Source: Candidatus Saccharimonadota bacterium (GTDB lineage: Bacteria; Patescibacteriota; Gracilibacteria; Absconditabacterales; Absconditicoccaceae). From it: a stretch of 32,000 nucleotides of DNA. The notes beneath the pieces were generated by a model. The model saw only the letters and a program-made list of their open reading frames with translations, did not search any database and was not told where the DNA came from. Location: the NCBI GenBank assembly GCA_965231145.1, contig OZ246420.1:630001-662000 (forward strand), given 5' to 3'. Of this stretch, positions 11,925 to 30,343 are shown piece by piece; position 1 is the stretch's first letter, and each line of letters begins with the position of its first letter. A program made the translations under genes and the position numbers.

Positions 11925-11942
11925 ATGGTGGGCCTAACTGGA
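11925..11942. repeat. island-distal att repeat: orphan copy of the last 17 nt of tRNA(CAU) plus 1 nt
   Basis: atggtgggcctaactgga is identical to 29182-29199. No tRNA body is attached on this side. Confidence 0.85.
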
Positions 11943-12054
11943 ACCACTATATTATGTTATAGCTCCAATAATAGTCATAATAAGTGTGCGTAACTAGCCT
12001 GATTGACACTTTCAGGATATTCAAACAAGAAAGAAAATCAAGCCATATTCTGTA

Positions 12055-12336
12055 TCAATCAAAACCTTCACTAAAAAACTCTTCTATTGTCATGTCAAAG
12101 GCTTTTATAATTCTGAGAAGGGTTGTGTATTGTATATCCGATGCACCACGTTCATAGCGGCCATATTGTACGCGGCCAATTTTATTTTCGTAGGCAAATA
12201 TTTCATGGCTAGAATGGCTACGTAAGCGTAATTGCCTTAATCTATCTCCCAGTTTCTTTAAGTCGTCTGGTATCTCTTTGCTCTTCGTCTTCTTTCCACT
12301 TTCCTTTTTCATAAAGCGAAAATTATAATGTACCAT
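12055..12336 (-). CDS. XRE-family helix-turn-helix transcriptional regulator
   Basis: This is a 93-aa ORF. LGDRLRQLRLRSHSSHEIFAYENKIGRVQYGRYERGASDIQYTTLLRIIKAFDMTIEEFF is a typical HTH_3/XRE fold pattern. The gene ends in TGA. Confidence 0.7.
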   Translation of the reverse strand: MVHYNFRFMKKESGKKTKSKEIPDDLKKLGDRLRQLRLRSHSSHEIFAYENKIGRVQYGRYERGASDIQYTTLLRIIKAFDMTIEEFFSEGFD

Positions 12337-12349
12337 ACTACTATGGTAC
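12330..12349. promoter_or_regulatory. palindromic operator candidate overlapping the XRE gene start
   Basis: gtaccata-ctac-tatggtac has perfect 8-bp arms and covers the ATG (12336-12334) of the XRE regulator, within the divergent intergenic region. Confidence 0.3.
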
Positions 12350-12437
12350 GTCTATAAAGAAACATCTGAATAGAAACATCTAATTAGGTTCATTATTAAA
12401 AATTATCAGTATTATTGTGGACTAAACATTTTTCGAC

Positions 12438-12923
12438 ATGAGAACCATTTTATCCTTTGCATTTGCGATTGTGTGTATACAAACACACGCACAAAAATTA
12501 TCACAGAGTGAGGTTGGACGGTACGCTAAAAACTTTGCCTATAGGATGTATAATACAGAGCCATGCTATGGAGACAAACACACCGGCTTCAATTTTAATA
12601 TCCTTACATGGAAAGCAATTAGAGGTAATAGTGGCTCATATTTCTACGCTGTAAAAGTTGAAGCGACATGGAAAGAAGGGATGGGCGGCATATGGGGTGA
12701 CTGGAAAGATTATGTGTACAAAGGCATTATGGTCTTCGATGGCTACGGTTGTAACCCTGTATTCTTTATCACAGAGAAAAAAGAGTTTACCATTTTAGGC
12801 GTGAATAAGAGATCTCGTGAACTAGACCCGGGCTTAAAAACTGCCATGATTGAAGGCGACCCTTCTTGGTTTAAAAATATCAAATGGGGTTGGCAACCGA
12901 GCGGCTGCTTAAGTGATAACTAA
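12438..12923 (+). CDS. secreted hypothetical protein
   Basis: This is a 161-aa ORF with the N-terminal signal peptide MRTILSFAFAIVCIQTHAQ. It has no in-frame TGA and a TAA stop. Confidence 0.6.
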   Translation: MRTILSFAFAIVCIQTHAQKLSQSEVGRYAKNFAYRMYNTEPCYGDKHTGFNFNILTWKAIRGNSGSYFYAVKVEATWKEGMGGIWGDWKDYVYKGIMVFDGYGCNPVFFITEKKEFTILGVNKRSRELDPGLKTAMIEGDPSWFKNIKWGWQPSGCLSDN

Positions 12924-12931
12924 AACAAAGG

Positions 12932-13342
12932 ATGATGAAGGGAATTTTACTTTTAGCTGCTGTGCTTATTGCTACCGTTGCCAAAGCTCAACAAGTCACA
13001 TTGAATTATGCTCGTCAGCATGGGTATAAAATCATAAAGCAACCCAATAAAGGGCATTTGGATATAGAGGTAAGCGAAGAATATCATAACCTTATTACCA
13101 TCCATACAAACCGCCTACAAGCTTCATGTGACAGTAATTATGAACTAAAGATGATTACAGGAACTGGCAGGGTGAAGACAAGCAAAAACTGCAGGGATTA
13201 TAGCATGGGAACCATGGTTAATAAAGACTTTCCGGCCACGGTAAAAATTAAGTTTAGAGATAAGGAAGGCGATTGGGTGGAGTTTACTGTGAAACTGCTC
13301 TACGCCGGGTTTAGATATAGGGTTGACTTATTTCGTAATTGA
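12932..13342 (+). CDS. secreted hypothetical protein
   Basis: This is a 136-aa ORF with the signal peptide MMKGILLLAAVLIATVAKAQQ. It starts 9 nt after the previous gene and has a TGA stop. Confidence 0.6.
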   Translation: MMKGILLLAAVLIATVAKAQQVTLNYARQHGYKIIKQPNKGHLDIEVSEEYHNLITIHTNRLQASCDSNYELKMITGTGRVKTSKNCRDYSMGTMVNKDFPATVKIKFRDKEGDWVEFTVKLLYAGFRYRVDLFRN

Positions 13343-13354
13343 GGATATTTCTTT

Positions 13355-14530
13355 TCAATTTCTATCGATAAAGTTTAGCCAATCTATAACTTCATGAATA
13401 GGCAAGTTTATTACCGGCCCGGCCCATCCCGATGCCAAAAAACCCACCGGAAAAGAACCAGGAACGAAGTATAAAAGCAGCATATCTGCTTGTTTCATTT
13501 TAGGAGCCGTTACTGATTTAAATCTGTTCACAAATTCTACATGTTGCTTTTCATCTTTAAATTCTAGGGCTTTTATTTCAATTTTGCTTTTCATGAAATC
13601 TTCTATCGTTTCATGTTGATCTATCTTATCAATGTTAGAGGGGTATCCTTCAAAAAACGATTCTATTATATCGTCCTTCATAACCTCATGATAATGTAAA
13701 TTCGCGATAGTCAGCATATTTGATGTGTAGATGGTCAGCTTATCGAATGTTGTATTTAGTAAAAATTCTCCTCTTATTTGTGATGCAACTTTCGTCCCAG
13801 AGCCTTCAAGTAGAATAATGATAGCCTCACTAACTTTATGCGTATTAATATTTATCCATTTTTCATAATCATCATCAACTAGTGTCGTTGGAAGCATAAG
13901 AATACTATTCTTAACATTGTTAAGATGTTCTCCAAACATACTCGGGACATTATAAAAATATTCGGAGAAATAACTTGTAAATCGAGACGGTTTTGACACT
14001 TTAAAACTGTCAGGCTGCCTAATGAATAATTCAACTACTTTATCGATATTTTGCTTCTCTATTTCCTTCACCAAGCCGTCAAGCACATTCATGTGAAAAA
14101 AGTTTTGTTCGAAAAACGGTTTAAACAACATCGCATAACTACTGTTAGCTTTTGCTAAGTCCTGGCAAGTTTGAAATAGTGCTTCACAATAGATTTTATT
14201 TTTTTCCTCTTGAGACAAGATTTTCTTTGTTTTTTCTTGATGTGTATTTACGGCATCGTTGCATTTACTGTCCGTATGCGAAGTGAGATAAAGCATAGAC
14301 ACTATTCCTTCCAAACTATACGTATCCCCTTCATCTGTAAAAAATGCCTTATAAAGGCTATATGCCTTTGATATATGAAATATGGCATTAGCTTTTTCAA
14401 AAGCTAATATATAGCTGGGTTTTATGTCTGTTTTTAAAGCTAAGTCTTTATAACTCCACCCCCGCTGTTCTCGAGCACGTCGAAACACAATACCGAGACA
14501 AATCGAAAAGACATTTCTAATTTCCTTCAT
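13355..14530 (-). CDS. hypothetical protein with N-terminal XRE-like HTH
   Basis: This is a 391-aa ORF. RRAREQRGWSYKDLALKTDIKPSYILAFEKANA looks like an HTH; the rest is unrecognised. It has a TGA stop. Confidence 0.55.
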   Translation of the reverse strand: MKEIRNVFSICLGIVFRRAREQRGWSYKDLALKTDIKPSYILAFEKANAIFHISKAYSLYKAFFTDEGDTYSLEGIVSMLYLTSHTDSKCNDAVNTHQEKTKKILSQEEKNKIYCEALFQTCQDLAKANSSYAMLFKPFFEQNFFHMNVLDGLVKEIEKQNIDKVVELFIRQPDSFKVSKPSRFTSYFSEYFYNVPSMFGEHLNNVKNSILMLPTTLVDDDYEKWININTHKVSEAIIILLEGSGTKVASQIRGEFLLNTTFDKLTIYTSNMLTIANLHYHEVMKDDIIESFFEGYPSNIDKIDQHETIEDFMKSKIEIKALEFKDEKQHVEFVNRFKSVTAPKMKQADMLLLYFVPGSFPVGFLASGWAGPVINLPIHEVIDWLNFIDRN

Positions 14531-14868
14531 GCAGTAAAATTACACGTATTCGTATTTTTACCCAAATTCATTCGTTATTTATATTTATACACTATAGCCG
14601 TTATTTTTTTTACCTCCTATTTTAAATGTTTTTCTTTTTGTGTTATGTTATCTCTTATCTTTGTTTTACCAAAAAAAACGGATGAAGTAGAATACCCCAC
14701 CCGCTGCATATAAAAGCTACCAACTTTTATATACGGCGCACCCGGAAAAAACGGTTTCCGACTACTTCGCAAAACAGACCCTCAACAAATCTGTCTCACG
14801 CATAAATATTGTAACAATATAAATGTGTAAGTCAAGGTGAGTTGAGGTACAAAACAGAACCTCGACGT

Positions 14869-15087
14869 ATGGAACACCTACACTCAATTGTCGCTCAACT
14901 GAAAGAGCTTGGCTATGGAGCCGACATCTATAAGGTTGAAAATTCATGGTATAATGACGGAGTTCCATTATCTAACCCGCAAGAGGTGTTACATTGTTCG
15001 TGGTATAGTCCAGCCCTAAAAAAGAAAATTTCAGTCTATCGCATTTCCAATGCCACAATAAAAGGAGTTGCAATATCCATAACGTAA
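14869..15087 (+). CDS. small hypothetical protein
   Basis: The ORF track gives 14842-15087. The first ATG is at 14869 (MEHLHSIVAQLKELGYG...), and a strong terminator follows directly. Confidence 0.45.
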   Translation: MEHLHSIVAQLKELGYGADIYKVENSWYNDGVPLSNPQEVLHCSWYSPALKKKISVYRISNATIKGVAISIT

Positions 15088-15114
15088 GAGGGAGCATTTT
15101 AGCTCCCTTTTTTA
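15088..15114 (+). terminator. rho-independent terminator
   Basis: gggagc-atttta-gctccc is followed by tttttt immediately after the 15087 stop. Confidence 0.7.
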
Positions 15115-15250
15115 TTGTCCATACAAAAAGGTTCTTCACAACAAAACACTTGATAATGAGAATAAAGTATGCTGCAAAAACTCGACCACCGCCACACAGA
15201 ATTGTTCACATGCAGAAATATTATTCTCTCCGTATTTAAAACCAAACAAA

Positions 15251-15949
15251 ATGAAAAAACACAATCTACTATTTGCACTAATTATGCTCACGCTTTCATG
15301 CGGCATAGAATCCACACAACACCCAGGTACAGAACAACAGGCGACTACTACGCAAAACAAAACAACCCAAATAGTGTTCATAGCAGACCGTAGTCGGTCC
15401 TTCGTCAAAAAGTACGACCACCCCTCACCGGAACTTTTTAAACCACTCTGTGATAAGATAGTTTCCAGCGGCTGCACACTCGACTTTCGCTATGGTTGTA
15501 TATTCTCCAGCAGCGACCAAGTGCTAGATAGGTACTATGTACCCTACACGCCAGAAGAGAAAAATCAGGGATCGAGCAACCCTTGGCTTGCAAGTGAAAC
15601 GAAGAAGAAAAAAGCCACAGCCCCACTGGCTGACACATGGAGCAATTTTGCGACTTCCGTAAATGAAAAGCTTGCATTGCCCCCATCGAATGGCAGCGAT
15701 ATTAACTCTGCGGTCGGACACGCTCTTTTATCGTTTCAGGAGGGAAAGGCTACCCGCAAAATTCTCTTTCTCTGCACCGATGGAGAAGACAGCAGGGGGC
15801 AACTCCCCTCTATTGGTTCAGACATCGAAGTGATAACCGTGGGACTCTTAGAAGAAAATCACTTAGAGCAGGCTCTCAACACAAACAACGTTAAACACTT
15901 TGAAAACATCCATTCCGCAATTGAATATCTCTATTCGCAAACCTTCTAA
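15251..15949 (+). CDS. von Willebrand factor A (vWA) domain lipoprotein
   Basis: MKKHNLLFALIMLTLSCG is a lipoprotein-type signal with Cys. IVFIADRSRSF is a MIDAS DxSxS motif, and ILFLCTDGEDS is the vWA TDG motif. Confidence 0.6.
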   Translation: MKKHNLLFALIMLTLSCGIESTQHPGTEQQATTTQNKTTQIVFIADRSRSFVKKYDHPSPELFKPLCDKIVSSGCTLDFRYGCIFSSSDQVLDRYYVPYTPEEKNQGSSNPWLASETKKKKATAPLADTWSNFATSVNEKLALPPSNGSDINSAVGHALLSFQEGKATRKILFLCTDGEDSRGQLPSIGSDIEVITVGLLEENHLEQALNTNNVKHFENIHSAIEYLYSQTF

Positions 15950-15959
15950 AATAAATTTT

Positions 15960-16796
15960 ATGACAACAAAGAAACAAACGCTTCAAAGCCACATCATTGA
16001 ACAGATAATAAGCGGTATCGTAAAAATTACAGACAAAATATTTGATCTCTATAGCCAGGCTGCAAAGTGGCACGAAAAAAGCGACATGCTGGAATTTGAA
16101 AACAGGCACACAAATAAAGCAAATACAATGAAAAAAACTGGATGGTTTTTCTTGCTCTTTATTCTAATGCCTCTTATTGCTTGTCTCGACTACACCAGCG
16201 TAGCGTCATTCATAGATTATCTAGCGAAACAAAATGGCGGCATGATTGGCACTTTCATTCAGTTTATAGGGGTCTTTTTCTTCCTATTGATTGAAATCGG
16301 GTTGGGATGGTTCCTCGCTTCTTCTAAAGACAAACCATTGCGTAGGCTATTAGCCATATTGTGCGCAACAATAGTCACCGTGGCACCAAGTGGCTTGGTG
16401 TATGTTACCTACTATATCAACCCGGAAAAAACACAGCTTCTGTTTGTCAAAACACTGGTGCTTATGATTATTTCCATTCTCCTGCATGCACTGATATTTC
16501 TTCTCATTGACGAAATATGGGCTGGCATCCTATTCTATAAGTATCGCCTCAAACGATGGCTACACGATAAAGAGAACCCAGCTAAGCTCATTTCTATAGA
16601 GAAAAGTAAGCTACAAAAAGAGTTCATTGATTTTGATGTGTATGTCGTGGAAGAAAGCGATAACGGAGCACGTCACCTCTACAATAATCGAGCGTGGTAT
16701 TTGAAGGAAAAATTCAAAAAGGGGGACATCGAACACGAAACCGATTTGTCGGACTACAACCCTAATACTTCTTACGCCCCTTCTATTCATTCGTAA
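15960..16796 (+). CDS. multi-pass membrane protein
   Basis: The track ORF 15900-16796 overlaps the previous gene, and an in-frame ATG lies at 15960. Hydrophobic segments include WFFLLFILMPLIACL, GVFFFLLIEIGLGWFLA, LLAILCATIVTVAPSGLVYV and LVLMIISILLHALIFLLI. Confidence 0.55.
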   Translation: MTTKKQTLQSHIIEQIISGIVKITDKIFDLYSQAAKWHEKSDMLEFENRHTNKANTMKKTGWFFLLFILMPLIACLDYTSVASFIDYLAKQNGGMIGTFIQFIGVFFFLLIEIGLGWFLASSKDKPLRRLLAILCATIVTVAPSGLVYVTYYINPEKTQLLFVKTLVLMIISILLHALIFLLIDEIWAGILFYKYRLKRWLHDKENPAKLISIEKSKLQKEFIDFDVYVVEESDNGARHLYNNRAWYLKEKFKKGDIEHETDLSDYNPNTSYAPSIHS

Positions 16797-16806
16797 AAGC
16801 ACACTC

Positions 16807-17163
16807 ATGCTAATCACTCTAACAATCGTAGCACTCGCTTTAGGCCTATTCTTAGGCTATAAGGCGGGTGCATTTTATGAGAAGAAACTCACCTCCACAT
16901 TGGAAGGCAAAATTGAAATACTGGAAAATCAGGTAAGGCTCTTGCAAGAATACTCCGCCCATTGGGCCGCAGAATCCACAAATCGCTATCACCTACTTGG
17001 ACAAGTCACACAGCAGCAAACAACAAATACAACAGCACAAATTCACACAGTCATACAGCTACTGCAAACAATTCAAAAAGAGCAAGGACAAAATCTCAGT
17101 AGAAATGAAAACGAAAAAATCAGTCAGTTAATTAACCAAGCTAAGCAAGTAATCCAAAACTAA
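16807..17163 (+). CDS. small membrane-anchored coiled-coil protein
   Basis: This is a 118-aa ORF with the N-terminal TM segment MLITLTIVALALGLFLGY, followed by heptad-like Gln-rich sequence. Confidence 0.5.
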   Translation: MLITLTIVALALGLFLGYKAGAFYEKKLTSTLEGKIEILENQVRLLQEYSAHWAAESTNRYHLLGQVTQQQTTNTTAQIHTVIQLLQTIQKEQGQNLSRNENEKISQLINQAKQVIQN

Positions 17164-17277
17164 ATTCCCGGAATGGACTGAGTGAGTGCACGGCTATTTA
17201 GTGAACGAGCGAAGGGAAAGGAGGGAATTTATAAGGTTATTGAATGGTAACAATATTCTGTAATGCAGTCGGAGCAA

Positions 17278-17344
17278 GGGTTTTCAGGGTTTTCAAACCG
17301 ACAACCGTGTCGGTCGATTATCGGGTCGGAAGTCGGTTTGAAAA
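17278..17344. promoter_or_regulatory. candidate oriT / recombination-type repeat cluster
   Basis: A tandem gggttttca x2 lies at 17278-17295. A 13-bp perfect inverted repeat is formed by ttttcaaaccgac (17290-17302) and gtcggtttgaaaa (17332-17344). GTCGG occurs three times in between. The cluster sits in the 214-bp gap upstream of the transfer genes. Confidence 0.35.
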
Positions 17345-17377
17345 TCTGCTCTTGCAACAACCCAAAATTTTTATAGT

Positions 17378-17821
17378 ATGCTAACAAGAAACGAATTAGA
17401 ATATTTGATTTATAACACTGTCGATATTGTACCCCAAAGTGCAGACAGTGTTTTTTTAGGTGTCTTTTCTTTGGTGGACAATGTAGAAACGCTCAATCGT
17501 GTTCTCTCTAAAATAACGACATACTATGACAATCTACTTTCAACATTACCGCTATCACTTTCCGAACGTTTAGCCTTACAGGTGCAGCGACCGTTTACAT
17601 TCGAGGAATACAAAGCACTCTTTTCCGTCAGTCAAGAACGACACTTTGCTAACCATGCCATTTTCAGAACGCTATTAATAACCACACGAGCGGAGCAACT
17701 GTTATTTATCAATAACCCCAACCGTGATGACAGTTTTCAGTCGTATAAAAAATTGCTGCAAAACTGGAGCAAGATACATCACCCGCTTATCAACTCACTT
17801 ATATATGGCATTCACGATTAA
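17378..17821 (+). CDS. hypothetical protein (transfer-module associated)
   Basis: This is a 147-aa ORF with no recognisable motif. It overlaps the downstream ATPase gene. Confidence 0.45.
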   Translation: MLTRNELEYLIYNTVDIVPQSADSVFLGVFSLVDNVETLNRVLSKITTYYDNLLSTLPLSLSERLALQVQRPFTFEEYKALFSVSQERHFANHAIFRTLLITTRAEQLLFINNPNRDDSFQSYKKLLQNWSKIHHPLINSLIYGIHD

Positions 17822-19190
17822 CGCACGGGTAACGAAGCAATCATTCCTCAAACACTTTTTGTGTATTGGAGGTAGCGGCAGCGGTAAGACAACCTTACAA
17901 ATGCAACTTCTTTATGATATGATTAGAACGTCAAATAAGGACAAATTTCCTGAAAGTCTTATCATGCTTGAACCGCATGGTGATGCAAGTCTAAGGGCTG
18001 GCTTAATTCGCATTATACCCCGTGAGAGGCTTGTCTTCATGAGTAATGCTATCAATAGGCTTGTCCATAATACAACGGGTGAAAACTACACGTTTACGTT
18101 CAATCCCTTTGAGCATTCAGGAAGTGATGAAGAAAAATACCACTTAACACATGAATTGACTAACGCTTTTACGGAGCTTTTAGAAAGCTCTATGCACTCA
18201 ACGCAAATGGGGCTTAGTGTGCAAATGGCAACAATGCTCTCTCATGCAATAGCAGTTGTAATGGAAAGCGAAGAACCGTCAATCCTTACCCTGCTAAGAA
18301 TGTTCACGCCCGACAATGAAGACCTACTAAGGTTAGGGCAATCTTTTAAGCACCCTTTAGTGCAGCAATTCTATCAGTACCATTTTATGAGTGATAGCTA
18401 TAAACAAACACGCTCCTCTATATATACAAAATTAGCATACTTTGTTTCGGATGCGCAGGTGTATCAGATTTTAGGCACGAAACACAGCACGCTAAAACTC
18501 GATGAATTTATAGAATCAGGCAAAGTTATCATCATCCATACCCCACAGGGAATTTCAACTAACGTGCAGTCTTTTATCGGCAGGCTCATTCTTGCGAGGG
18601 CGTTCAGTTGTGTGTTAAAGAGAGAAGCAATCCCTGTATCAAAAAGGCGCAATGTTTTTGTGTTTGTCGATGAGTTTCAGCAGTACACCACCAAAAGTAT
18701 ATCCCACATTTTGCAGTCAGCAAGAAAATATAACATGGGACTATGCTTGTTCACTCAATCGCTGAAACAAATTTCCGATACAAAGCTGATAAGCTCTATA
18801 CAAACAAATACCAACTGGAAAGCAGTTGGGGTCATTGATGTAGCAAACAGGGAAGCAATGGCAAAGGAAATCGGTTGCACAGCAGAAAGGATTGCTTCCC
18901 TTTTCCCTTTGCAGTTCCTCATCAAACAGGCAGGAAACAACGATTTTTTTCAGTTCACCACAATGCCGTTAGACGATGATTTGTTTTATACCGAAGCCGA
19001 AGCAATACTGCTCTACCAATACCTGATAAAAGACAGCGGGCAGTATGTACCAATAAAGCCTTTCACGTCCACCCCGCCCCCTCCTGCACCTCCCCGTGTT
19101 GAACGTTCTAAAGACATAAAAAACACAGAAAAGAAGACAAAGAAGAACGATGATAACCCATTTAATGAAGGAATTACACCAGCTTTTTAA
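17724..19190 (+). CDS. VirD4/TraG/FtsK-HerA-like P-loop coupling ATPase
   Basis: Walker A is CIGGSGSGKTT and Walker B is NVFVFVDEFQQY. The C-terminus has a PPPPAPP linker and a basic tail. An alternative in-frame start lies at 17805 (MAFTINARV). Confidence 0.6.
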   Translation: MMTVFSRIKNCCKTGARYITRLSTHLYMAFTINARVTKQSFLKHFLCIGGSGSGKTTLQMQLLYDMIRTSNKDKFPESLIMLEPHGDASLRAGLIRIIPRERLVFMSNAINRLVHNTTGENYTFTFNPFEHSGSDEEKYHLTHELTNAFTELLESSMHSTQMGLSVQMATMLSHAIAVVMESEEPSILTLLRMFTPDNEDLLRLGQSFKHPLVQQFYQYHFMSDSYKQTRSSIYTKLAYFVSDAQVYQILGTKHSTLKLDEFIESGKVIIIHTPQGISTNVQSFIGRLILARAFSCVLKREAIPVSKRRNVFVFVDEFQQYTTKSISHILQSARKYNMGLCLFTQSLKQISDTKLISSIQTNTNWKAVGVIDVANREAMAKEIGCTAERIASLFPLQFLIKQAGNNDFFQFTTMPLDDDLFYTEAEAILLYQYLIKDSGQYVPIKPFTSTPPPPAPPRVERSKDIKNTEKKTKKNDDNPFNEGITPAF

Positions 19191-19208
19191 TTTCTAAACT
19201 AACCATGT

Positions 19209-20015: not shown

Positions 20016-20034
20016 TCCTACTAAATACGAGATC

Positions 20035-20304
20035 ATGCAAGTAGAACTCATCACAAGGCAAGACCTTGAAAACTTTAAAAAGGAGTTACTGGAAGCATTT
20101 GCCACGTTTACAGGCAAGCAAAGCAACACACCAGCAAAGGAATGGCTACGCTCAAAAGAGGTGAAGCAACTACTTAACGTATCTAACGGAACCTTGCAAA
20201 ATTTGCGGATTAAAGGGCTACTCCACCCCACAAAAATCGAGGGGGTGTATTACTATAAGCTATCAGAAATACAAGCATTGCTTAATGCAGGAACAGGTCA
20301 ATAG
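20035..20304 (+). CDS. HTH_17/excisionase-family DNA-binding protein
   Basis: EWLRSKEVKQLLNVSNGTLQNLRIKGLLHPTKIEGVYYYKLSEIQALL is the typical MerR-like excisionase HTH of Bacteroidota mobile elements. The ATG is at 20035, within track ORF 20002-20304. Confidence 0.65.
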   Translation: MQVELITRQDLENFKKELLEAFATFTGKQSNTPAKEWLRSKEVKQLLNVSNGTLQNLRIKGLLHPTKIEGVYYYKLSEIQALLNAGTGQ

Positions 20305-21029: not shown

Positions 21030-22268
21030 ATGTTAGAGCAAACGTTAGGTGTTCTTTTCTATCAGAAAAAACCAAAAGGCTACACTAAAGGCAGTGTGCC
21101 AGTTTACTTGCGAATTACCGTTAATGGTATTCCCAAAGAGATAGCAACAAAGCAAGTGTGTGAACCTGAACGCTGGAACAGCCATGCACAACGAGCAAAG
21201 GGAACAAATGAAGCAAGTAAATCACTCAATGCGTTTTTAGATACGCTTGAAAGGCAAGTACACGAAGCAAGGCGAACACTCATTGAGGGCCAAACGCCAA
21301 TAACCGCAGAAGCATTAAAGAACGTTCTTACTGGGCAAGGTGAACGCCCCCGGATGCTGTTAGAAATCTTTAAGCAGCACAACAAACAATTGAGTGCATT
21401 GGTGAATACCGAATTTGCACCCGCAACCATTAAACGGTATGATACCACCTACGAACATGTACGGGCATTCCTGCTGTTGAAATACAAGGTTACTGACATA
21501 GACATTAAAAGCCTGTCATTTTCTTTTGCCTCTGATTTTGAGTTTTATCTCAAAAGTGAAAAGAAGTGTAACCATAACAGCACTATAAAGTATATCGGCA
21601 ACGTACGCAAAATTGTAAACTACTGCCTTAAAAGTGGATGGCTGCAAAGAGACCCGTTTTTCGGCTTTAAGATGAATAAAAGAGAAGTAGCAAGGGAATA
21701 CCTTAGCCAGGAGGAAATTCAGGCATTAACCGACAAGAAATTCACCATAGACCGATTAAGCCAGGTGCGGGATATATTCCTCTTTAGCTGCTACACAGGA
21801 TTGGCTTTTATAGACGTGTTCCAGCTTACACCTTCACGGATAGCAAAGGGCATTGATGGTAATCAATGGATTTTTACGTTCCGGCAGAAAACGGACACAC
21901 CTACACGCATTCCGCTTTTACCACAGGCACAAGAAATTTTACTCAAATACCAAGCCAATCCTAAGTGTATAAATGAGGGTAAAGTTTTGCCAATCCTAAG
22001 TAATCAGAAAATGAATGCCTATCTGAAAGAGGTTGCTGATTTATGTGGCATTACTAAGCCCCTCACCTTTCACATTGCCCGCCATACGTTCGCTACTACC
22101 GTCACATTAAGCAATGGAGTGCCAATAGAGACGGTAAGTAAGATGCTAGGGCATAAGAGCATTAAGATAACGCAGCATTATGCAAAGATCATAGACAGGA
22201 AAGTAAGTGAGGATATGTTACTGCTACAAACACGGCTACATGGCGCAAAAAAGAGTCCAGCGATTTAG
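21030..22268 (+). CDS. tyrosine site-specific integrase (Bacteroidota type; standard code, no TGA)
   Basis: This is a 412-aa ORF with HIARHTFATTV (HxxR) and LGHKSIKITQHYAKI (catalytic Tyr). The N-terminus VYLRITVNGIPKEIATK is arm-binding-domain-like. It has a TAG stop. Confidence 0.85.
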   Translation: MLEQTLGVLFYQKKPKGYTKGSVPVYLRITVNGIPKEIATKQVCEPERWNSHAQRAKGTNEASKSLNAFLDTLERQVHEARRTLIEGQTPITAEALKNVLTGQGERPRMLLEIFKQHNKQLSALVNTEFAPATIKRYDTTYEHVRAFLLLKYKVTDIDIKSLSFSFASDFEFYLKSEKKCNHNSTIKYIGNVRKIVNYCLKSGWLQRDPFFGFKMNKREVAREYLSQEEIQALTDKKFTIDRLSQVRDIFLFSCYTGLAFIDVFQLTPSRIAKGIDGNQWIFTFRQKTDTPTRIPLLPQAQEILLKYQANPKCINEGKVLPILSNQKMNAYLKEVADLCGITKPLTFHIARHTFATTVTLSNGVPIETVSKMLGHKSIKITQHYAKIIDRKVSEDMLLLQTRLHGAKKSPAI

Positions 22269-22328
22269 CTGGACTTACATAATTTAGTATAGTATAACGA
22301 CATAAGTACAAAATCCTTTTTGTATGAC

Positions 22329-25300
22329 TTATTTCAAGTTTGCTTTAAGAACTTCAATTTTTTTTGACAAGGATTTATTAACTATTTTATCGGCATTTTC
22401 CTTTTCTGTTTGCTTCTTTTTAAATTCTAACAGCATCTTTTTCTGTTCGTCTATTGGAATTATAGGGATATTAAATGCTTCGATGTCTGTTTGATTGATA
22501 CTTGGATAAGATGATTTAGGCATCTTAGCCTCCATTTGTTTCATTAAATCATCAGAAAACATAAAAAGGTAATAGAGAAATTCTGTCAGGTATAATTTAT
22601 CGTCTTTTGATTTAATCAATGCAAATCCGGTAGAGAAAATAGCATCAGTCGGAACATCCTTTAAATAGGCAAAACCTCTTAAATATGGTCTAACGGTTGA
22701 AATAATCACCGTGTCATTTTCTGCTATTCTTCTTGCTCTTGATGGTGCATCAATTCCTTTCACCTTTTTAGCAAAAGAAATTATACCCGTTCCCTTCCCT
22801 ACGCTATCAATATCAATGTAACTAAATTCATCTTCGATGTATTTTTTAGCAGGATCAATTGTTTTATCATTAATTGCAAATAGCTGTCCAATTTTATTTG
22901 ATTTATTGTATTTTATATATGTTTGATTGATTTTACCTTTAATAAATTCAATTGCTTTTGTAGATGCTTCAATTGCTTTTAATTCTTCTTTCTCAATTAG
23001 ATTTATTTCTTTCTGAATTTTAGTTTGTGTCGTCGGTGAAGGTAAAGGAATTTTAATCCTGAGTAAATCGTCAAGATAAACATGAGGCTGTGCTTGACCT
23101 CTTTGTAATGAATATAGCTCAGATTGAATGGCCTTAAGATACAGATATATCAGTTTTGTAGAAATTTTTTTCTCTTCAAGAGACTGAATGGTAGTACAAT
23201 CAGAAGCAAAAATTGGGACTTCAAAATAGTTAGCGAATCCAGCATATGCTCCAGAAGCACTAACAGTAATTACATTGCCTTTTCTGTTTGATACGTTGTG
23301 ATAATATGCTAACTCTTGGCCACCCGCTATAACTGGAACTGAGCCATGAATTGTTTCATCTTGAGTAATTGAAGTGCCTTTTTTGAGCTCAGCTATTTCG
23401 CTTATTGGAGTCAGATTAGTTGTGTTCCAGATTTGCTCAAAGTTCATTTTTTTTTTACTAGAGACCGAAATGCTCTTATCAAATTCAGCCCTATCAAAAG
23501 TCAGCAAATCTATTAAGTTGCTACGGCTAATGTTATGCTGAAGTGATTCTGGTATATCAATATCAAAATCCCCTAAAAAGGCTTTGTAAATGTAAGTGCT
23601 TGCTTTTTCTGGATTCTCAAAAATGTGAGGATCGAAGAGCTTTGTACATTCTTCTATACTTTTTCCCTTTTTAATTGAATGAATGCCTTCACTGCCTCTA
23701 CGAGTACTGAATTCATATCCTAAGAATTGTTTTTCAGCATCCTTCGCCCCTGTCTTCATTAAAACGACTTTCTGCGAATATGCCAAGACAAAGTAAAATA
23801 TCTTATCCTGTTCTAACTCTAAAACCCTATTCCAAAATTCACCGTCAGTCTTGGCTTTTACCTTCTTTCTATACTCTTTATACAGATCATGTGATTTGAT
23901 ATTGTCGTTGGGTTGTTTCTTAAGTAGTGTTACATAATCACTAAATTTAATCCCTTCCCAAGCATGAATCAGGTACTTAGTTATCGGATTTTCGACGTTA
24001 TTGATAGCAATATCCTTGAAATCTGCGACAGCTCTTTTGACTAATTCAAACGTATTTATTGAGTCGTAATTGTTTCTTCTTCTTAAGAATAGAATGACCG
24101 TATTTGTGTCAGTAGCCATAAAAGTATTACTACCTAATTCAACAATACTCACAATATCAAAGTATTGTAGAATAATTTCTCTTGATTTGGTATAAATACC
24201 TCCATTACTTAAAATCGTTTTCGGAAGAATTATAGAGGCTATACCGCCATCTTTTAATAACTGCTTTGTACGTTCTACAAATAAGCATTCAATTTCACTA
24301 CTTTGATCCGTCAATTTATCATACAGCTCAAAGTCATCCTCAGTATAAAATTTTCTTGCATTATTTTTAAATGCCGAAACAGAATAAGGTGGATTTGATG
24401 CTACTATATCAAATTGCTTATTCTCTTTTGGAAAATCCTTATCTGTTTTTTTTAGGAGACCCTTATATTCTTCTGTCTTTGAGAAATTTCCAAGCCCATC
24501 AGTATGTATAATCTGCGCTAGCCCATCTCCATGGAGGTAACAACCTACCTTACCGACTTTAACTAAACGATAATCTTTTTCTATTCCATAAATATACTGG
24601 TAAGCCCAATCAAAGTGATCTGTTTTCCATGTTGAGATCTTTTTTGCGGTACTATCCATTAAGTATGACTTAGAATCTGTATTATCTATTATACTTTGGA
24701 CTACGTGCATACTCTCCGTAATGAAATGACCGCTACCTGCCGCGTAATCAATTATAGTTGGTAATAAATTATCCTTTTCACCTTTATTTAGTTTGTCCGC
24801 AACAATTTTATCTAAGGGAATACTTTTAATTATGAATTGCGCAATAGGGACGGGGGTAAAATACTGTCCCGATTCCTGTTTTAACCCGGTAGTAAGTAGG
24901 AGCTCAAAAAAATCGCTGAGATATTGTTGTTTCTTTGTATAGCGAATTTTAAATCCTTGCAATAATTCAACGACTTCCTTTACTACTTTAGCATTCTCAA
25001 TAAATGAATCATCATTAAAGACTTCCTTAATAGCAAACTCGTTGTTTTTTTTCAATCTAATCTCGGTAAACTCATCTAGTATTTGCTTCTTTGTGATCGC
25101 CGGCAATTGACCATATTTTTTTTCAAAATCCACATCTGAAATATCAGTAACAGATTTATCTAAAAACTCCTTCATGCCCTTTCTATAAAGGTCGGTTAAA
25201 CGCTTTTGGAAAGAGATATTGTCATCAGGTGGATAATCTATACCTTCATATTTATATGAAGTATAAAACCATTGAAAGGCAAGTTCATCATTGGGTTTAG

Positions 25301-26108
25301 TTACTTTTTCATCATATATTTTACAAAGAAAGAGTGTAAATATTTTATTGAAGGCATTGGGCTTATCAGACACTACATTGTGCCTAAGTATTTCTAAAAA
25401 TTGGTTGAAGATAAAACTACTATCTTCCTGTTTAATGTCCTTTAAATTATTAGGAGTTAGTGCCTTGCTTTGAAAATCGTAGGCGTTTACCCAGGCATCA
25501 AACACGCCGTTATTCTTAGGCAGTTTGTTCCAACGATCGTAAAAATCTTTTACATTCCCTGTCTGTCTATAATCATCTTCAACTTTGATAATTTCATTGC
25601 GATACTGCAATTTCCCTTTATCTAAGTATGAGGAATATAACATCAATATATCCGCATTCTTGTCTTGTTGAAAATAAGTGAACAGTTGACCCCCGTCTTT
25701 TAATATTTTCTTAAACTCTTTATCAAATTCTTGCCCGTGCGTTTTACATTCAATCATTAAATATGCTGTACCGTCTTCACGCAATACTAGAACATCAAGT
25801 ATGCCACTAGTTCCATGACCTGTAGCCCACGTTTTTTCAAGATGTATAGATTTGGGCTTGTATCCTTTCGTGAGTAGCCTATCTACACACTCTAAAACAA
25901 CGAAATTTTCGGGATCTTTAAAATTACATGTCGTTTTTCTACCGATAGCTATATCACTACCGTAATCAATTGACTCACTAGCAAAGTCAATTTTTATTTT
26001 ATAGTCTCCGTGATTAGGATATTTCTTAATCCAAGAATCCTGCACTCCGTTTTCGAGAGCGAATCCCAAAGCTTTAAGTAATCCTTTTATGTCGAGATTT
26101 GCTTTCAT
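22329..26108 (-). CDS. single-polypeptide R-M-S restriction-modification enzyme (Type IIB/IIG-like, AloI/CjeI-type architecture)
   Basis: This is a 1259-aa ORF. The N-terminus has a PD-(D/E)xK-like motif, GILDVLVL...AYLMIECK. The gamma-class N6-adenine methyltransferase motifs are IIDYAAGSGHF (I) and IVASNPPYS (IV). The C-terminus has two HsdS-like target-recognition domains (...VPVIAGGQELAYYH... and ...TVIISTVRPYLRGFAYL...) separated by coiled-coil spacers. Confidence 0.75.
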   Translation of the reverse strand: MKANLDIKGLLKALGFALENGVQDSWIKKYPNHGDYKIKIDFASESIDYGSDIAIGRKTTCNFKDPENFVVLECVDRLLTKGYKPKSIHLEKTWATGHGTSGILDVLVLREDGTAYLMIECKTHGQEFDKEFKKILKDGGQLFTYFQQDKNADILMLYSSYLDKGKLQYRNEIIKVEDDYRQTGNVKDFYDRWNKLPKNNGVFDAWVNAYDFQSKALTPNNLKDIKQEDSSFIFNQFLEILRHNVVSDKPNAFNKIFTLFLCKIYDEKVTKPNDELAFQWFYTSYKYEGIDYPPDDNISFQKRLTDLYRKGMKEFLDKSVTDISDVDFEKKYGQLPAITKKQILDEFTEIRLKKNNEFAIKEVFNDDSFIENAKVVKEVVELLQGFKIRYTKKQQYLSDFFELLLTTGLKQESGQYFTPVPIAQFIIKSIPLDKIVADKLNKGEKDNLLPTIIDYAAGSGHFITESMHVVQSIIDNTDSKSYLMDSTAKKISTWKTDHFDWAYQYIYGIEKDYRLVKVGKVGCYLHGDGLAQIIHTDGLGNFSKTEEYKGLLKKTDKDFPKENKQFDIVASNPPYSVSAFKNNARKFYTEDDFELYDKLTDQSSEIECLFVERTKQLLKDGGIASIILPKTILSNGGIYTKSREIILQYFDIVSIVELGSNTFMATDTNTVILFLRRRNNYDSINTFELVKRAVADFKDIAINNVENPITKYLIHAWEGIKFSDYVTLLKKQPNDNIKSHDLYKEYRKKVKAKTDGEFWNRVLELEQDKIFYFVLAYSQKVVLMKTGAKDAEKQFLGYEFSTRRGSEGIHSIKKGKSIEECTKLFDPHIFENPEKASTYIYKAFLGDFDIDIPESLQHNISRSNLIDLLTFDRAEFDKSISVSSKKKMNFEQIWNTTNLTPISEIAELKKGTSITQDETIHGSVPVIAGGQELAYYHNVSNRKGNVITVSASGAYAGFANYFEVPIFASDCTTIQSLEEKKISTKLIYLYLKAIQSELYSLQRGQAQPHVYLDDLLRIKIPLPSPTTQTKIQKEINLIEKEELKAIEASTKAIEFIKGKINQTYIKYNKSNKIGQLFAINDKTIDPAKKYIEDEFSYIDIDSVGKGTGIISFAKKVKGIDAPSRARRIAENDTVIISTVRPYLRGFAYLKDVPTDAIFSTGFALIKSKDDKLYLTEFLYYLFMFSDDLMKQMEAKMPKSSYPSINQTDIEAFNIPIIPIDEQKKMLLEFKKKQTEKENADKIVNKSLSKKIEVLKANLK

Positions 26109-26366
26109 TAGGTTATTACTAGTTAAATGATATAAATATCATTATGAAAAAACGGCAAAAAAGCAATAAATAATTTCTCTTCGCGACAGACCAGAATTAA
26201 GATTAATTTGAAATTTCACGCCCAACACTACACTGTCAGTTTTAAGCATAAATTACTATATTTGCAAACTTTTGCGAAAATATACTTTTTTTTGGTCAGA
26301 AAGACAAATGTGCGATAAGTATTGCTTTTGAATGGGTACAAAAACCCCGATTTTTCTTATAAAACG

Positions 26367-26388
26367 AGCTCCCAGCAAACCGGGAGCT
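26367..26388 (-). terminator. possible terminator hairpin downstream of 26512-26808
   Basis: The stem agctccc / gggagct has an 8-nt loop. On the minus strand it is followed by cgttttat. The T-run is weak. Confidence 0.3.
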
Positions 26389-26511
26389 GTGTGGTGTACG
26401 ACCCTTTCCCCTAAAGTTCCTGTCTGGTGGCATTCCATAAAGACAACTGCCACGTAGAGTTTGTTTGCTTTGCCGAAGGTTATTCGCACCAGTGCGCACT
26501 GTTTACCGTCT

Positions 26512-26808
26512 TTAGTATTCTTCTGCTAAAAGCAAGGTGCAGTAGTTGTATTCTTCTTCAAATTCCCCGCTTGAAATCATTTTCTTGTCAAGCTGGTCTA
26601 TTAAAAACAACTTTCTGCCGTGCTCATCAGTATAGACTTGCAGATAGTCTATGCCATTTTTTTGTTTAGCAAAGGTTTTTACGTCTTGGTAAATCGAGAT
26701 AATCTCCTCGAAATGTAACGTTTCAAAAACGCCCTTTGTCATGTAGAACTTACCAGAAAAGAAATACTCCTGGTCGTTCCGTTCTTGTGGTTGCCTTTCC
26801 CATGCCAT
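26512..26808 (-). CDS. small hypothetical protein
   Basis: This is a 98-aa ORF (alternative ATG at 26742, MTKGVFETLHF...). It has no in-frame TGA and a TAA stop. No family was recognised. Confidence 0.45.
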   Translation of the reverse strand: MAWERQPQERNDQEYFFSGKFYMTKGVFETLHFEEIISIYQDVKTFAKQKNGIDYLQVYTDEHGRKLFLIDQLDKKMISSGEFEEEYNYCTLLLAEEY

Positions 26809-26854
26809 TGTATTTTGTTTTGGTTTCTAATATCCCTCTTTTCAGAGGGTGTGC

Positions 26855-27250
26855 TTATTTTTCGGGTGCAAGCAGTTCGTTTATCGCTTCTCCTATTTTT
26901 TTTCTTACAGCTTCGTTTTTGATTTCGCCTAAAAGCTTACCAAGTCTGTTTATTGAAACAGCGCGAATCTGGCGCAATCTTAGGTAAGAGTTTTGGTAAA
27001 GCTTGTTATCATTATCCTTTAAAAGAATGAGATCGTGCTTATCTTTTAGCTTTTCACCTAATGCAGATGTAAGGGGTATAACGGTAACATCTTCGCCTCC
27101 CATGCTTTCCGGCGTTATGACAAGAGCAGGTCTTATGCCGGTTATCTCGCTACCGATGGTTGACGAAAAATTGACCGTGTAGATCTGTCGTTTCTTTATT
27201 GATTGCTGCTTGACGAGAGGTTTCGTATTTAGTCTTAGTTGCGTAATCAA
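26855..27250 (-). CDS. PemK/MazF-family toxin (possibly extends to ATG 27394 if TGA is read as Gly)
   Basis: RQIYTVNFSSTIGSEITGIRPALVITPE...VTVIPLTS matches the MazF/PemK core. The upstream 32-codon ORF (27394-27299) is in the same frame and separated by a single TGA. Confidence 0.65.
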   Translation of the reverse strand: MITQLRLNTKPLVKQQSIKKRQIYTVNFSSTIGSEITGIRPALVITPESMGGEDVTVIPLTSALGEKLKDKHDLILLKDNDNKLYQNSYLRLRQIRAVSINRLGKLLGEIKNEAVRKKIGEAINELLAPEK

Positions 27251-27452
27251 TCCTTCAACGTGCGCTGTTAGATTGTGTTCCTTGGGATTTTTGTTTCAAA
27301 CAAGTTCATCCCACAATGCTATTTTGTAACTTTTATTAAACACATCTTTGTCTGCTCCTTTTAAGCGCACTTCAATTTCATAATCTCTCAACATGGGCGT
27401 TCCGGTTATAAGGTAAAATAATAGTCGTGCATAGCTTCTGCCCATATCCCGT

Positions 27453-28526
27453 TTATTTTACGTCTTTTATTGTTGTTGAATGATTGCCAAGTAGATAAAG
27501 TAACAGCGTATGTAAAGTGGTGATGGTTGTTTGCTGTTCTTGCTGAGTGATCGGAACACCCTGTAGTAAATCACTTCACAATGCCTGAGTCTTTTGCCTT
27601 ACAAACTCTGAATTTGAATGACTGTATAGGCTGGTTACGGCTAGGTTACTATGTCTCATTTTTCGTTTCACATCATGTATGCTTCGACCATCTTCAAGTA
27701 GGTGTGTACATAAACTATGACGAAACAAATGAGAGTACACATTCTGTAGTATTCATGCGTCTGCTGCTATTTTTTTCAATGCGATGTTCAATTTTTGTTC
27801 GGTTAGTTTTGTGGCTGCTCCTCTTTCATAGAGGGTGAAGATGTACTTGAATTTCGTGTCCGGGAAAATGTTGTTTCTTATTACCAGGTATTCATTGAGT
27901 TTGTCGGCAGCAGTTTCGCTAAAAGTTATTTCTGCCTCTTTGTTACCTTTTCAAACAATCGTTCATTTAAGCTGCGAGATGTTTATATTTTCATAGGTAA
28001 GTCATCTTAGCTCGAAATTACGCAGTCAGGTTGTGTAGAGCATTCGAACTATCGCACGCCGTAGATAGGCAGAGTAAATCGCATGTTTTCTGCCCGACAA
28101 ATTTGCCTCGCTTACGTTTTGCTCCAGTTGTTTCATTAGTAGACTTACTTCGTCTTTTGTCAGATATGCGACCGTTCTTTTAGTTACTTTGCAATTTGGT
28201 ATATCAGCAGGAACGAGTTTATCTAGTTTCGCATTATTACTTAGCCGTTTAATGTAGGCCGTTATGTGTGTCATTATTTTATTGAGATGTGCGTTGCCAA
28301 ATGGCTTTACCTCTCCCTTTCCCGCTTTTTTACTTTTCTTGTTTTGTAGCCGTCTATAAAACACACGCATATCAGTTGCTTTTAGTGCTGTTGTTTCAGT
28401 ATTTCCGTATAGTTCTGAAAAGTATGATAAGGACAAATTGACCTTCCTAAGAGTAGCCTCCTTGTTTCATCTCTCTAGCTTCAGGTAGGCATTGTATTTG
28501 CCTAGCGTGTCAATTACTGTACTCAT
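27453..28526 (-). CDS. tyrosine integrase written in TGA=Gly code (357 aa)
   Basis: The frame runs ATG 28526 to TAA 27455-27453 with 7 in-frame TGA. These restore LYTT-G-LRNFELR-G-L (Arg box), LK-G-TIV-G-KGNKEA and ADA-G-ILQNVYSHLFRHSLCTHLLEDG (HxxR), followed by MRHSNLAVTSLYSH (catalytic Tyr). The N-terminus GKYNAYLKLER-G-NKEATLRKVNLSLSYF is a SAM-like domain. Confidence 0.85.
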
Positions 28527-28870
28527 GCTGGCTCCTCTATTAGAGTGTAAATCTTTACTTCGATTTTCTCTCTTACGTAACTTATTGCCTCCTGTGCTGC
28601 TTGTTCAAGGCGTGGCTTTAAGGCCTTATCAGCCCGCACTGTTGTTATGCAGTTATAGCAAATGTCTAACCCGAACTTCTGCAGTATATGTCCTTCGAGT
28701 TCTTCTTGTGATTCATTTACACAGTCTTGACACATGCTCTCCTTGCAACAGAAACAGATTTGTATTGCTTCTTTTTTAGCCTTGTTAAACTTTTGCTTTT
28801 TACCCCAACGCTGGTGAGCATTTCGGCAAAATGTGCAAACGTCTATCTCTGCTAAAGCTAGCTTAGTCAT
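28514..28870 (-). CDS. Cys-rich (zinc-ribbon-like) small protein upstream of the integrase
   Basis: The 115-aa ORF has multiple CxxC pairs (CTFC, CFCC, CQDC, CYNC). Its TGA at 28525-28523 overlaps the integrase ATG. Read as Gly, the protein ends 3 codons later at TAA 28516-28514. Confidence 0.5.
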
Positions 28871-28961
28871 GGACTACATCATTACAGGGGTAAAATAATG
28901 TAGTCCATTTCTGATATTATTTCTACAGAACGTTCGTTCTATATTCAAGTGAAAATATCAG
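28871..28961. promoter_or_regulatory. nested palindromes in the leader/promoter of the Cys-rich/integrase operon
   Basis: ggactacat (28871-28879) and atgtagtcc (28898-28906) abut the start codon. ctgatattatttc (28911-28923) pairs with gaaaatatcag (28951-28961), and these surround the perfect palindrome gaacgttc (28928-28935). Confidence 0.35.
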
Positions 28962-29181
28962 ATCAGGATTACATTTTATTGCGTTCTGAAACAACACCCC
29001 AACTTATAGTTGACTCGTCTTTTGTTACCCTGACGAAACCGCACCTATTTTCATGCTGCTATGTGCAGTTGTTTACAAGTACGATAAAATTATCTTTCGG
29101 CATAAAAAAAACTTGAGTGTCATTTGACAATCAAGCAGTCTGTACCTTTTATTATGACTAAGTTCACTACGAACAGATTTT

Positions 29182-29199
29182 ATGGTGGGCCTAACTGGA
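29182..29199. repeat. tRNA-proximal att repeat
   Basis: atggtgggcctaactgga is identical to 11925-11942 and forms the 3' terminal 17 nt of the tRNA(CAU) gene. Confidence 0.85.
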
Positions 29200-30342: not shown

Positions 30343-30343
30343 A

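Follow-up and report, generated by a model that had tools for sequence, protein, structure and literature searches.

The 32,000-nucleotide stretch analyzed here, hereafter the window (contig OZ246420.1 of assembly GCA_965231145.1, positions 630,001 to 662,000), comes from a bacterium of the Absconditicoccaceae that reads TGA as glycine (genetic code 25), and it holds a 17.2-kb island inserted at the 3' end of a tRNA gene with anticodon CAT, tRNA(CAU). We consider it probable that this island is a copy of a rare family of mixed-code, two-integrase integrative mobilizable elements that moves between Bacteroidota and a code-25 bacterium. Judging from the sequences compared, the element seems to combine two modules: module A, with a standard-code integrase, an excisionase-like protein of the HTH_17 helix-turn-helix (HTH) family and an attachment site (attP) that copies the 3' end of a Bacteroidota transfer-messenger RNA (tmRNA); and module B, with a cysteine-rich open reading frame (ORF), a second integrase that we call int25 and a PemK-like protein, beside a second attP that copies the 3' end of the code-25 tRNA(CAU).

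That the island is a real site-specific insertion at the tRNA(CAU) 3' end in a TGA=Gly genome, as the initial annotation had proposed, is confirmed. The 18-mer ATGGTGGGCCTAACTGGA that had been reported as a perfect direct repeat occurs exactly twice in the window and bounds the island; no third copy is present in the window at up to two mismatches, and shuffled sequence gives none. An intact tRNA, called by ARAGORN and matched by its Rfam model over the full length (73.6 bits), overlaps the right copy with its 3' end, encoded CCA included; the left copy is an orphan lying 88 nt from a tRNA-Gly. The features that define the insertion are the following:

11761 to 11837, minus strand: host tRNA-Gly(TCC) (ARAGORN, Rfam), before the insertion 88 nt downstream of tRNA(CAU).
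11925 to 11942, no strand: attR core, the orphan 18-bp copy at the left island boundary; junction re-assembled in contig L037 (ERR4405441).
28871 to 29181, no strand: P arm of the tRNA(CAU)-type attachment site, collinear with the uninterrupted attP of a Bacteroidota-resident copy (L003 1944-2275, 71% identical).
29182 to 29199, no strand: attL core, the 18-bp copy that forms the tRNA 3' end; junction re-assembled in contig L038 (ERR4405441).
29183 to 29259, minus strand: intact host tRNA with anticodon CAT, which is the attB (ARAGORN, Rfam).

The data are metagenomic and were followed at the level of contigs rather than reads, and the tRNA-type attP of the element shares about 17 nt with the host tRNA, so that a short repeat common to both might have led the assembly to join a Bacteroidota contig bearing the element to a code-25 genome in error. 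However, both flanks read in code 25, the repeat shows the exact duplication expected of integration, the order of the element relative to its Bacteroidota-resident sisters is a circular permutation with its break precisely at that attachment site, and, on general reasoning, 18 bp seems too short for a false join at the usual assembly k-mer sizes. Both junctions moreover recur at 100% identity in separately assembled contigs of a second run, ERR4405441, in which contig L037 equals window 11256-13008 across the left junction and contig L038 equals window 26452-29457 across the right one; a 34.7-kb contig from ERR4405440 is likewise identical to window 11030-31021. The two runs probably belong to one study; a literature search for the sample identifiers gave no match. 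Because the junctions are found again, without a difference, in the second-run contigs, an assembly chimera is very unlikely indeed. Nested or tandem islands were considered as well and are ruled out by the lack of a third 18-mer copy together with the lack of internal boundary repeats in a repeat search.

If the island were removed, tRNA(CAU) would stand directly upstream of tRNA-Gly, and the locus before insertion would have been one long tRNA cluster. Just to the right of the insertion site lies a dense array of nine tRNAs (Glu, Asp, Thr, Val, Asn, Leu, Gln, Met, Gln; 30270-31547, minus strand), and a second CAT tRNA is found at 31346-31420. From its anticodon stem-loop, GCGACTCATAATCGC, we take the tRNA at 29183-29259 (minus strand) to resemble the lysidine-modified tRNA-Ile2 (compare E. 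coli ileX) and not elongator tRNA-Met.

Two genetic codes meet within these boundaries. Both flanks of the island use code 25: their genes contain 128 in-frame TGA in 3,748 codons, about half of all glycine codons, TGA and GGN together make up 6.9% of codons, a normal share for glycine, and reading TGA as glycine yields Pfam matches (3-dehydroquinate (DHQ) synthase, carbamoyltransferase N and C domains) that are full length only with TGA as sense. No marker of the reassignment, be it tRNA-Gly(UCA) or release factor 2 (RF2), lies within the window. The gene set at 12055-26108, by contrast with these flanks, is in the standard code, with no internal TGA in 4,181 codons and with TGA as the stop codon of four of its 14 genes; read by the code-25 host, these four would gain tails of 2, 8, 11 and 35 codons. 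TGA-free coding had been supposed to extend across the whole island, and it holds for this part but not for the right 2 kb (26855-28870), where three genes are intact only with TGA=Gly, so that the coding style of the island is not uniform: on the minus strand, 27453-28526 carries seven in-frame TGA, 26855-27445 carries one, and 28514-28870 reads through one near its end. The rise in guanine-plus-cytosine content (GC) that had been described at both boundaries was checked by a profile along the window and proved sharp on the left side alone, from 0.302 in the flank to 0.394 in the standard-code part (0.333 within its 1,259-codon restriction-modification (R-M) gene); the right-hand module has 0.393 and the flank beyond it 0.41-0.43. 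As that flank is tRNA-rich and hence itself GC-rich, GC marks only the left boundary and fails as a boundary marker on the right.

The first of the two integration systems, module A, is located in the interior of the standard-code part:

20035 to 20587, plus strand: HTH_17 excisionase-like protein (89 amino acids (aa); Pfam HTH_17, 1.4e-9) and a 100-aa protein with a PSYHP motif.
20688 to 20908, plus strand: attP of the Bacteroidota-type integrase, intact, with a 22-nt core at 20760-20781 and 28-nt arm repeats.
21030 to 22268, plus strand: Bacteroidota-type tyrosine integrase, 412 aa, TGA-free (Pfam Arm-DNA-bind_5, PF17293; Phage_int_SAM_5, PF13102; Phage_integrase, PF00589).

The best plasmid matches of this integrase are all from Bacteroidales (Parabacteroides, Phocaeicola, Bacteroides), at about 43% identity. 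Just upstream of it the 22-nt core GGTTCGACTCCCGCCGGCTCCA stands as a single copy in the window, between two 28-nt direct repeats of arm type (20688-20715 and 20881-20908; repeat family D7). The core, which resembles a tRNA 3' end, was tried as a copy of a host tRNA and rejected as such, since no tRNA in the window matches it; it proved to be the 3' end of a Bacteroidota tmRNA. In the related locus L009 the identical 22-mer occurs twice, once as the tmRNA 3' end (attL; Rfam RF00023, 72.8 bits) and a second time at the opposite end of the element, at a distance of 8.8 kb (attR), and the window is collinear with the L009 attR on its left side and with the L009 attL and integrase on its right side. 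The attR of L009 is followed directly (8999-16552) by another element of a different kind, which has a Bacteroidota-type integrase of its own and a primase/VapE-like gene; the two elements form a tandem array at ssrA.

According to the initial annotation, a purely standard-code Bacteroidota island had crossed once and had been inserted at the tRNA 3' end by its own Bacteroidota-type integrase. The roughly 14 kb free of TGA with Bacteroidota-type genes and the classic duplication of a tRNA 3' end agree with such an event, but the integrase is 7 kb away from the nearest island junction, its tmRNA-type attP and arm repeats are intact and in single copy, the 18-bp repeat at the island boundaries is unrelated to the 22-nt core, and the integrase next to the junction is a different enzyme, encoded in code 25. 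Since the window holds the tmRNA-type attP uninterrupted, the Bacteroidota-type integrase did not make the tRNA(CAU) insertion, and we regard a single crossing of this kind as very doubtful.

The enzyme next to the junction belongs to module B, whose genes are listed here with that of the neighboring protein p98:

26512 to 26808, minus strand: p98, 98 aa, always beside the PemK-like gene; TGA-free in the translated copies (window, L033, L035), by sister comparison.
26855 to 27445, minus strand: PemK/MazF-like protein, 196 aa in code 25, one in-frame TGA (Pfam PemK_toxin, 8.2e-17); two to four TGA in sister copies.
27453 to 28526, minus strand: int25, XerD-like tyrosine recombinase, 357 aa, seven in-frame TGA at conserved Gly positions (Pfam Phage_integrase, 2.5e-25).
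28514 to 28870, minus strand: Cys-rich ORF of 118 aa in code 25, or 115 aa with TGA as a stop, which may encode a zinc ribbon; two to five TGA in sister copies.

Int25 is the tyrosine recombinase at the tRNA-proximal island end, 656 bp from the attL core. Its catalytic domain aligns with XerD (PDB 5dcf/1a0p) at E=3e-17 with the R, HxxR, Y and GKGNKE motifs conserved, and three of its TGA codons stand where E. coli XerD has glycine, in the motifs ATGLR, LVGL and IGKGNKE. The family is very small, with 12 relatives among 5.8 billion proteins; a metagenome scan with the single int25 protein as query found nothing, the relatives in metagenomes having been found with an alignment query, and a scan of viral contigs gave weak, unrelated integrase matches only. 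The PemK-like protein has an 80-aa N-terminal extension, and the conserved p98 next to it, which matches no family in Pfam or NCBIfam, is a possible antitoxin.

The comparison with sister elements bears on both modules and on the backbone that connects them, which in the window comprises, apart from the HTH_17 and PSYHP genes given above:

16807 to 17821, plus strand: backbone genes cc118 and p147, conserved with 55-82% identity in the Bacteroidota-resident elements.
17727 to 19190, plus strand: type IV coupling protein (T4CP, VirD4/TraD-like), 487 aa (Pfam TrwB_AAD_bind, TraG-D_C; NCBIfam).
19209 to 20015, plus strand: p268, conserved backbone, putative replication-relaxation protein (weak Replic_Relax match, in a homolog only).

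This T4CP family is very rare (18 relatives in 5.8 billion proteins). The closest relative of the island, with a T4CP 88-90% identical, is found on Ga0164296_1000003, a 359-kb standard-code contig on which neighboring genes carry the Por_Secre_tail domains of the type IX secretion system (T9SS), a hallmark of Bacteroidota. The T4CP module (window 17009-20296) matches this contig at 81% DNA identity; window 20650-20782 matches it up to precisely the end of the tmRNA-like core, which forms attR there; and window 27716-29199 matches it at 71%, exactly up to the end of the 18-bp repeat. The relative holds, in collinear position, an uninterrupted attP(tRNA) core, CTGGTGGGCCTAATTGGA, with two mismatches to the window 18-mer, and its int25 homolog has in-frame TGA at conserved Gly positions. 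Identity to the window proteins is 92% for the Bacteroidota-type integrase (over the 159 aa covered by the fetched locus), 88% for T4CP, 84% for p268, 78% for p147 and 75% for HTH_17, and it is 68% for the Cys-rich ORF, 65% for int25, 57% for p98 and 52% for PemK. The same contig (locus L012, 7541-14880) has a larger code-25 block with a type IV pilin-like protein (N_methyl motif, four TGA), a superinfection-immunity/SHOCT protein (six TGA) and three further ORFs rich in TGA; such functions would be relevant in a code-25 epibiont.

Further copies are known. L014, on a 1.27-Mb contig whose long frames, in the 21-kb locus that was read, are free of in-frame TGA, has in order a tmRNA (tag GESNYAMAA), the Bacteroidota-type integrase, Thoeris ThsB/ThsA, PemK, int25 and T4CP, with four in-frame TGA in PemK (trimmed gene) and six in int25; L013 has tRNA-Asp, the Bacteroidota-type integrase, PemK and int25. 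In L017, a contig of a metagenome-assembled genome (MAG) titled Chitinophagaceae bacterium, the Cys-rich ORF (five TGA), an int25 65% identical and PemK (three TGA, trimmed gene) adjoin chromosome of GC 0.56, and three short contigs carry the trio of int25, PemK and p98 with TGA codons. L009 and L010 are relatives without the code-25 module. The Bacteroidota-like character first ascribed to the whole cargo stands for about 14 kb, on account of the integrase domains, the Bacteroidales matches near 43%, the T9SS-bearing neighbors and the relative in the Chitinophagaceae MAG.

Module B is kept by purifying selection with TGA read as glycine. Among five copies, columns with TGA in one copy show Gly in the others in 24 of 46 cases for int25 (background 5%) and in 26 of 43 for PemK (background 6.6%); non-synonymous differences per site amount to 0.21-0.29 in int25 and 0.29-0.39 in PemK, the synonymous ones being saturated (0.77-0.85). 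In-frame TAA or TAG is absent from every module B copy, as compared with 12-28 in each of the other two frames. The GC of module B, 0.37-0.44, is like that of the rest of the element and unlike that of either the code-25 host (0.30) or the Chitinophagaceae chromosome (0.56). Given the interchange of TGA with Gly codons and the purifying selection, translation with TGA=Gly would seem to be frequent enough to preserve the module B genes, which implies regular residence in code-25 cells; no TGA-decoding tRNA is encoded in the Bacteroidota-resident loci.

These observations have to be weighed against a nested or composite accident, in which a native code-25 element (Cys-rich ORF, int25, PemK, p98) became fused with a Bacteroidota mobilizable element, the Bacteroidota copies carrying the code-25 genes as dead passengers and the window recording a lucky one-off return. 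Such an origin would suit a module B that is compact, contiguous and more diverged than the backbone, the existence of relatives that lack it, and the single code-25-integrated copy. We nevertheless find it unlikely. In at least eight diverged copies none of the three frames is interrupted when read in code 25, non-synonymous substitutions run at about 0.3 of the synonymous rate, and TGA and GGN replace one another at Gly columns; module B and the backbone diverge in step (L014 being the most distant in both), and the Bacteroidota-resident copies retain the tRNA(CAU)-like attP core. Untranslated DNA would not keep the frames, the TGA/Gly pattern and the attP core, and for this reason module B is probably not dead passenger DNA. 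The one-way leak from the standard code into a TGA-sense host that had been proposed at the outset is likewise not borne out: the same TGA-containing module, conserved under purifying selection in copies that reside in standard-code genomes, points to repeated traffic both ways.

The arrangement of the copies is best seen on a circle that runs from attP(ssrA) through the Bacteroidota-type integrase, defense cargo, p98, PemK, int25 and the Cys-rich ORF to attP(tRNA-CAU), and from there through variable cargo, cc118, p147, T4CP, p268, HTH_17 and the PSYHP protein back to attP(ssrA). This circle is opened at attP(ssrA) in L009 and L014 and at the tRNA-Asp equivalent in L013, Ga0164296 shows the attR end, and the window is opened exactly at attP(tRNA-CAU). 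It is conceivable, though hardly probable, that the native home of the element is the code-25 lineage, its standard-code genes being free of TGA by drift or selection and the Bacteroidota contigs being dead ends. Standard-code-compatible phages of Gracilibacteria have been proposed (PMC10746230), and module B is under selection in code 25, both of which would agree with such a home; yet four of the 14 TGA-free genes stop at TGA, which is sensible only in the standard code, the internal integrase, the tmRNA-type attP, the signal peptides ending in AQ and the T9SS-bearing neighbors are Bacteroidota traits, the GC of the island is 0.39 against 0.30 in the host, and the other copies with readable flanks are all in standard-code DNA.

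For the mixed-code element moving between Bacteroidota and a code-25 bacterium, which is the explanation that we favor, a plausible course of events can be outlined. The element would be excised from a Bacteroidota chromosome by the standard-code integrase and the HTH_17 protein, rebuilding attP(ssrA), which indeed stands intact in the window, and would then enter a code-25 cell, either by mobilization through a conjugative helper, as the coupling protein and the Replic_Relax-like p268 suggest, or by DNA uptake. There, with TGA read as glycine, int25 would become translatable and might recombine attP(tRNA) with the host tRNA(CAU), leaving the 18-bp duplication that is observed. In a standard-code host TGA would truncate the module B genes and module B would be silent, and the standard-code genes would be readable in both hosts, with the four extended tails in the code-25 host.

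Several points weigh against this explanation. The part of int25 as catalyst of the tRNA(CAU) integration is a prediction, and the host phylum of L013 and L014 is one that we infer only. The Chitinophagaceae copy sits at the end of a MAG contig, where a binning error is possible. There is a single code-25-integrated copy, that of the window, seen in the two runs of what is probably one study; a scan of species-representative genomes yielded neither a second code-25 host nor a close code-25 relative, the organism was met only in ERR4405440 and ERR4405441, and an island-free allele with an empty attB was not found; the uninterrupted state of this att site in sister copies lends indirect support to excision. 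No canonical relaxase, Mob family protein or origin of transfer (oriT) was identified in the element, its coupling protein notwithstanding. Finally, protein identity to the sister elements is lower for module B (52-68%) than for the standard-code backbone (75-92%), a difference for which recombinational exchange of modules could account no less well than co-evolution.

A further step, which we offer only tentatively and with somewhat more doubt than conviction, is that the element is a true inter-phylum shuttle whose choice of host is enforced by the genetic code itself. If so, the tRNA(CAU) integrase and the PemK-like protein (in relatives also the pilin-like and superinfection-immunity genes) would be made only in the code-25 cell, and the ssrA integrase, the mobilization genes and the defense cargo would be readable in both hosts. 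The difference in code may be an evolved switch or a historical accident, and we prefer neither of these. Were the shuttle true, the element would record a physical partnership between an uncultured code-25 bacterium and a Chitinophagaceae-like member of the Bacteroidota, and it would be the first natural case of a mobile element, other than a virus, in which the genetic code switches expression according to the host; that stop-codon reassignment could act in this manner is an idea useful for synthetic biocontainment. Code 25 is usually seen as a barrier to horizontal gene flow into Gracilibacteria and Absconditabacteria, and here is an element integrated on both sides of it, apparently with its own machinery for each. 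Few code-25 bacteria have a known host or prey, and the element provides a testable candidate in Chitinophagaceae-like Bacteroidota of the same habitats. On the practical side, gene callers that apply a single code fragment or miss module B in Bacteroidota contigs.

The remaining genes of the standard-code part are the following:

12055 to 12336, minus strand: HTH_31/HTH_3 regulator, 93 aa, TGA-free inside and with a TGA stop (Pfam); 35 codons longer if read by the code-25 host.
12438 to 13342, plus strand: a pair of small secreted proteins (161 and 136 aa) whose signal peptides end in AQ; variable cargo, without homolog in sister elements.
13355 to 14530, minus strand: 391-aa protein with N-terminal HTH and a TGA stop; variable cargo (Pfam, codon count).
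15251 to 16796, plus strand: lipoprotein-like (232 aa) and membrane (278 aa) proteins, TGA-free; variable cargo (translations).
22329 to 26108, minus strand: single-chain R-M enzyme, 1,259 aa, GC 0.333 (HSDR_N_2, N6_Mtase/Eco57I, two Methylase_S domains).

The regulator at 12055-12336 adjoins attR, and a public gene call on the same contig gives it 129 aa; the tail of 35 codons could leave it altered or disabled in the code-25 host only. In the slot between the Bacteroidota-type integrase and p98/PemK the defense cargo differs from copy to copy, being the R-M enzyme in the window and Thoeris ThsB and ThsA in L014 (11831-13874). As either host can read such cargo, a ready-made standard-code defense gene enters a reduced genome. 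The slot of L012 (15198-20528), read from translations alone, contains a cytosine methyltransferase (16004-17074), a UvrD-like helicase (17205-19331) and two uncharacterized ORFs. Two non-coding gaps in the island, 14531-15250 (about 720 bp) and 26109-26511 (about 400 bp), could each hold oriT or regulatory RNAs. In the conserved backbone of the sister copies three of 38 stops are TGA, a figure suggestive of TGA-stop avoidance that has no host background for comparison and from which we make no claim.

Two features of the host flank deserve mention. At 10056-11760 (plus strand), directly left of tRNA-Gly and with an open frame running into the tRNA, lies a code-25 large serine recombinase split over two frames (Resolvase ends at 10592, Recombinase begins at about 10600), which could be the frameshifted remnant of another mobile element. 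At 1-6100 (minus strand) a code-25 cluster encodes a DHQ-synthase-like protein, a carbamoyltransferase of NodU/CmcH type, a 633-aa multi-domain P-loop protein and a NUDIX hydrolase; it resembles a cluster for sugar or aminocyclitol modification, which is unexpected in a reduced genome.

In full-text searches of the literature we found no account of a non-viral element that bears two integrases written in different codes, nor of a single element inserted into genomes on each side of the code-25 boundary, and an island with two alternative att/int systems for hosts of different genetic codes is not known to us. The nearest counterparts of the Bacteroidota side are the Bacteroides mobilizable transposons NBU1 and NBU2, which have a Bacteroidota-type tyrosine integrase, a target at the 3' end of a small stable RNA, an attP of core and arms, an HTH excisionase-like gene and mobilization without full conjugation machinery. 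The present element has these features as well, its mobilization functions being putative; however, NBU1 and NBU2 target tRNA-Leu or tRNA-Ser and this family ssrA or tRNA-Asp, a coupling protein and a Replic_Relax-like protein take the place of a recognized Mob relaxase, and there is a second integrase with a second attP in another code, through which the copy in the window would have been integrated. With islands at ssrA or tRNA 3' ends, as generally known, the element has in common that the 3' end of the RNA gene is duplicated, that an integrase lies at the end proximal to that gene and that the defense cargo varies. Int25 resembles the XerC/XerD recombinases (PDB 1a0p, 5dcf) in its catalytic domain and motifs, and differs from them in a distinct N-terminal half, a mobile-element location by a tRNA-type att site, a very small family and the use of code 25.

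In phages with recoded stop codons the code may, according to Borges et al. (bioRxiv 10.1101/2021.08.26.457843), regulate late genes. The present element is comparable in that one mobile genome unites standard-code genes with genes that need a reassigned stop, the code possibly serving as an expression switch. In those phages the recoded codon is reportedly TAG for the most part and TGA less often, and the switch is said to be temporal within one host; here, in contrast, TGA is reassigned to glycine, no suppressor tRNA is encoded, and the proposed switch lies between two hosts. Closest in the organisms concerned are the phages of Liu et al. (2023, mBio; PMC10746230), who predicted from CRISPR spacers that standard-code-compatible phages infect Gracilibacteria/Absconditabacteria as well as standard-code bacteria, five of nine co-targeted Gracilibacteria phages being also hit by Bacteroidetes spacers and the prophages inside code-25 genomes being all in code 25. 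Like these phages, the island includes mobile DNA that lacks in-frame TGA and would be expressible on both sides of the boundary between code 11 and code 25; unlike them, linked to their hosts as they are by spacers, it is a largely standard-code element physically inserted in a code-25 genome; it is no phage, and it joins both codes in one element.

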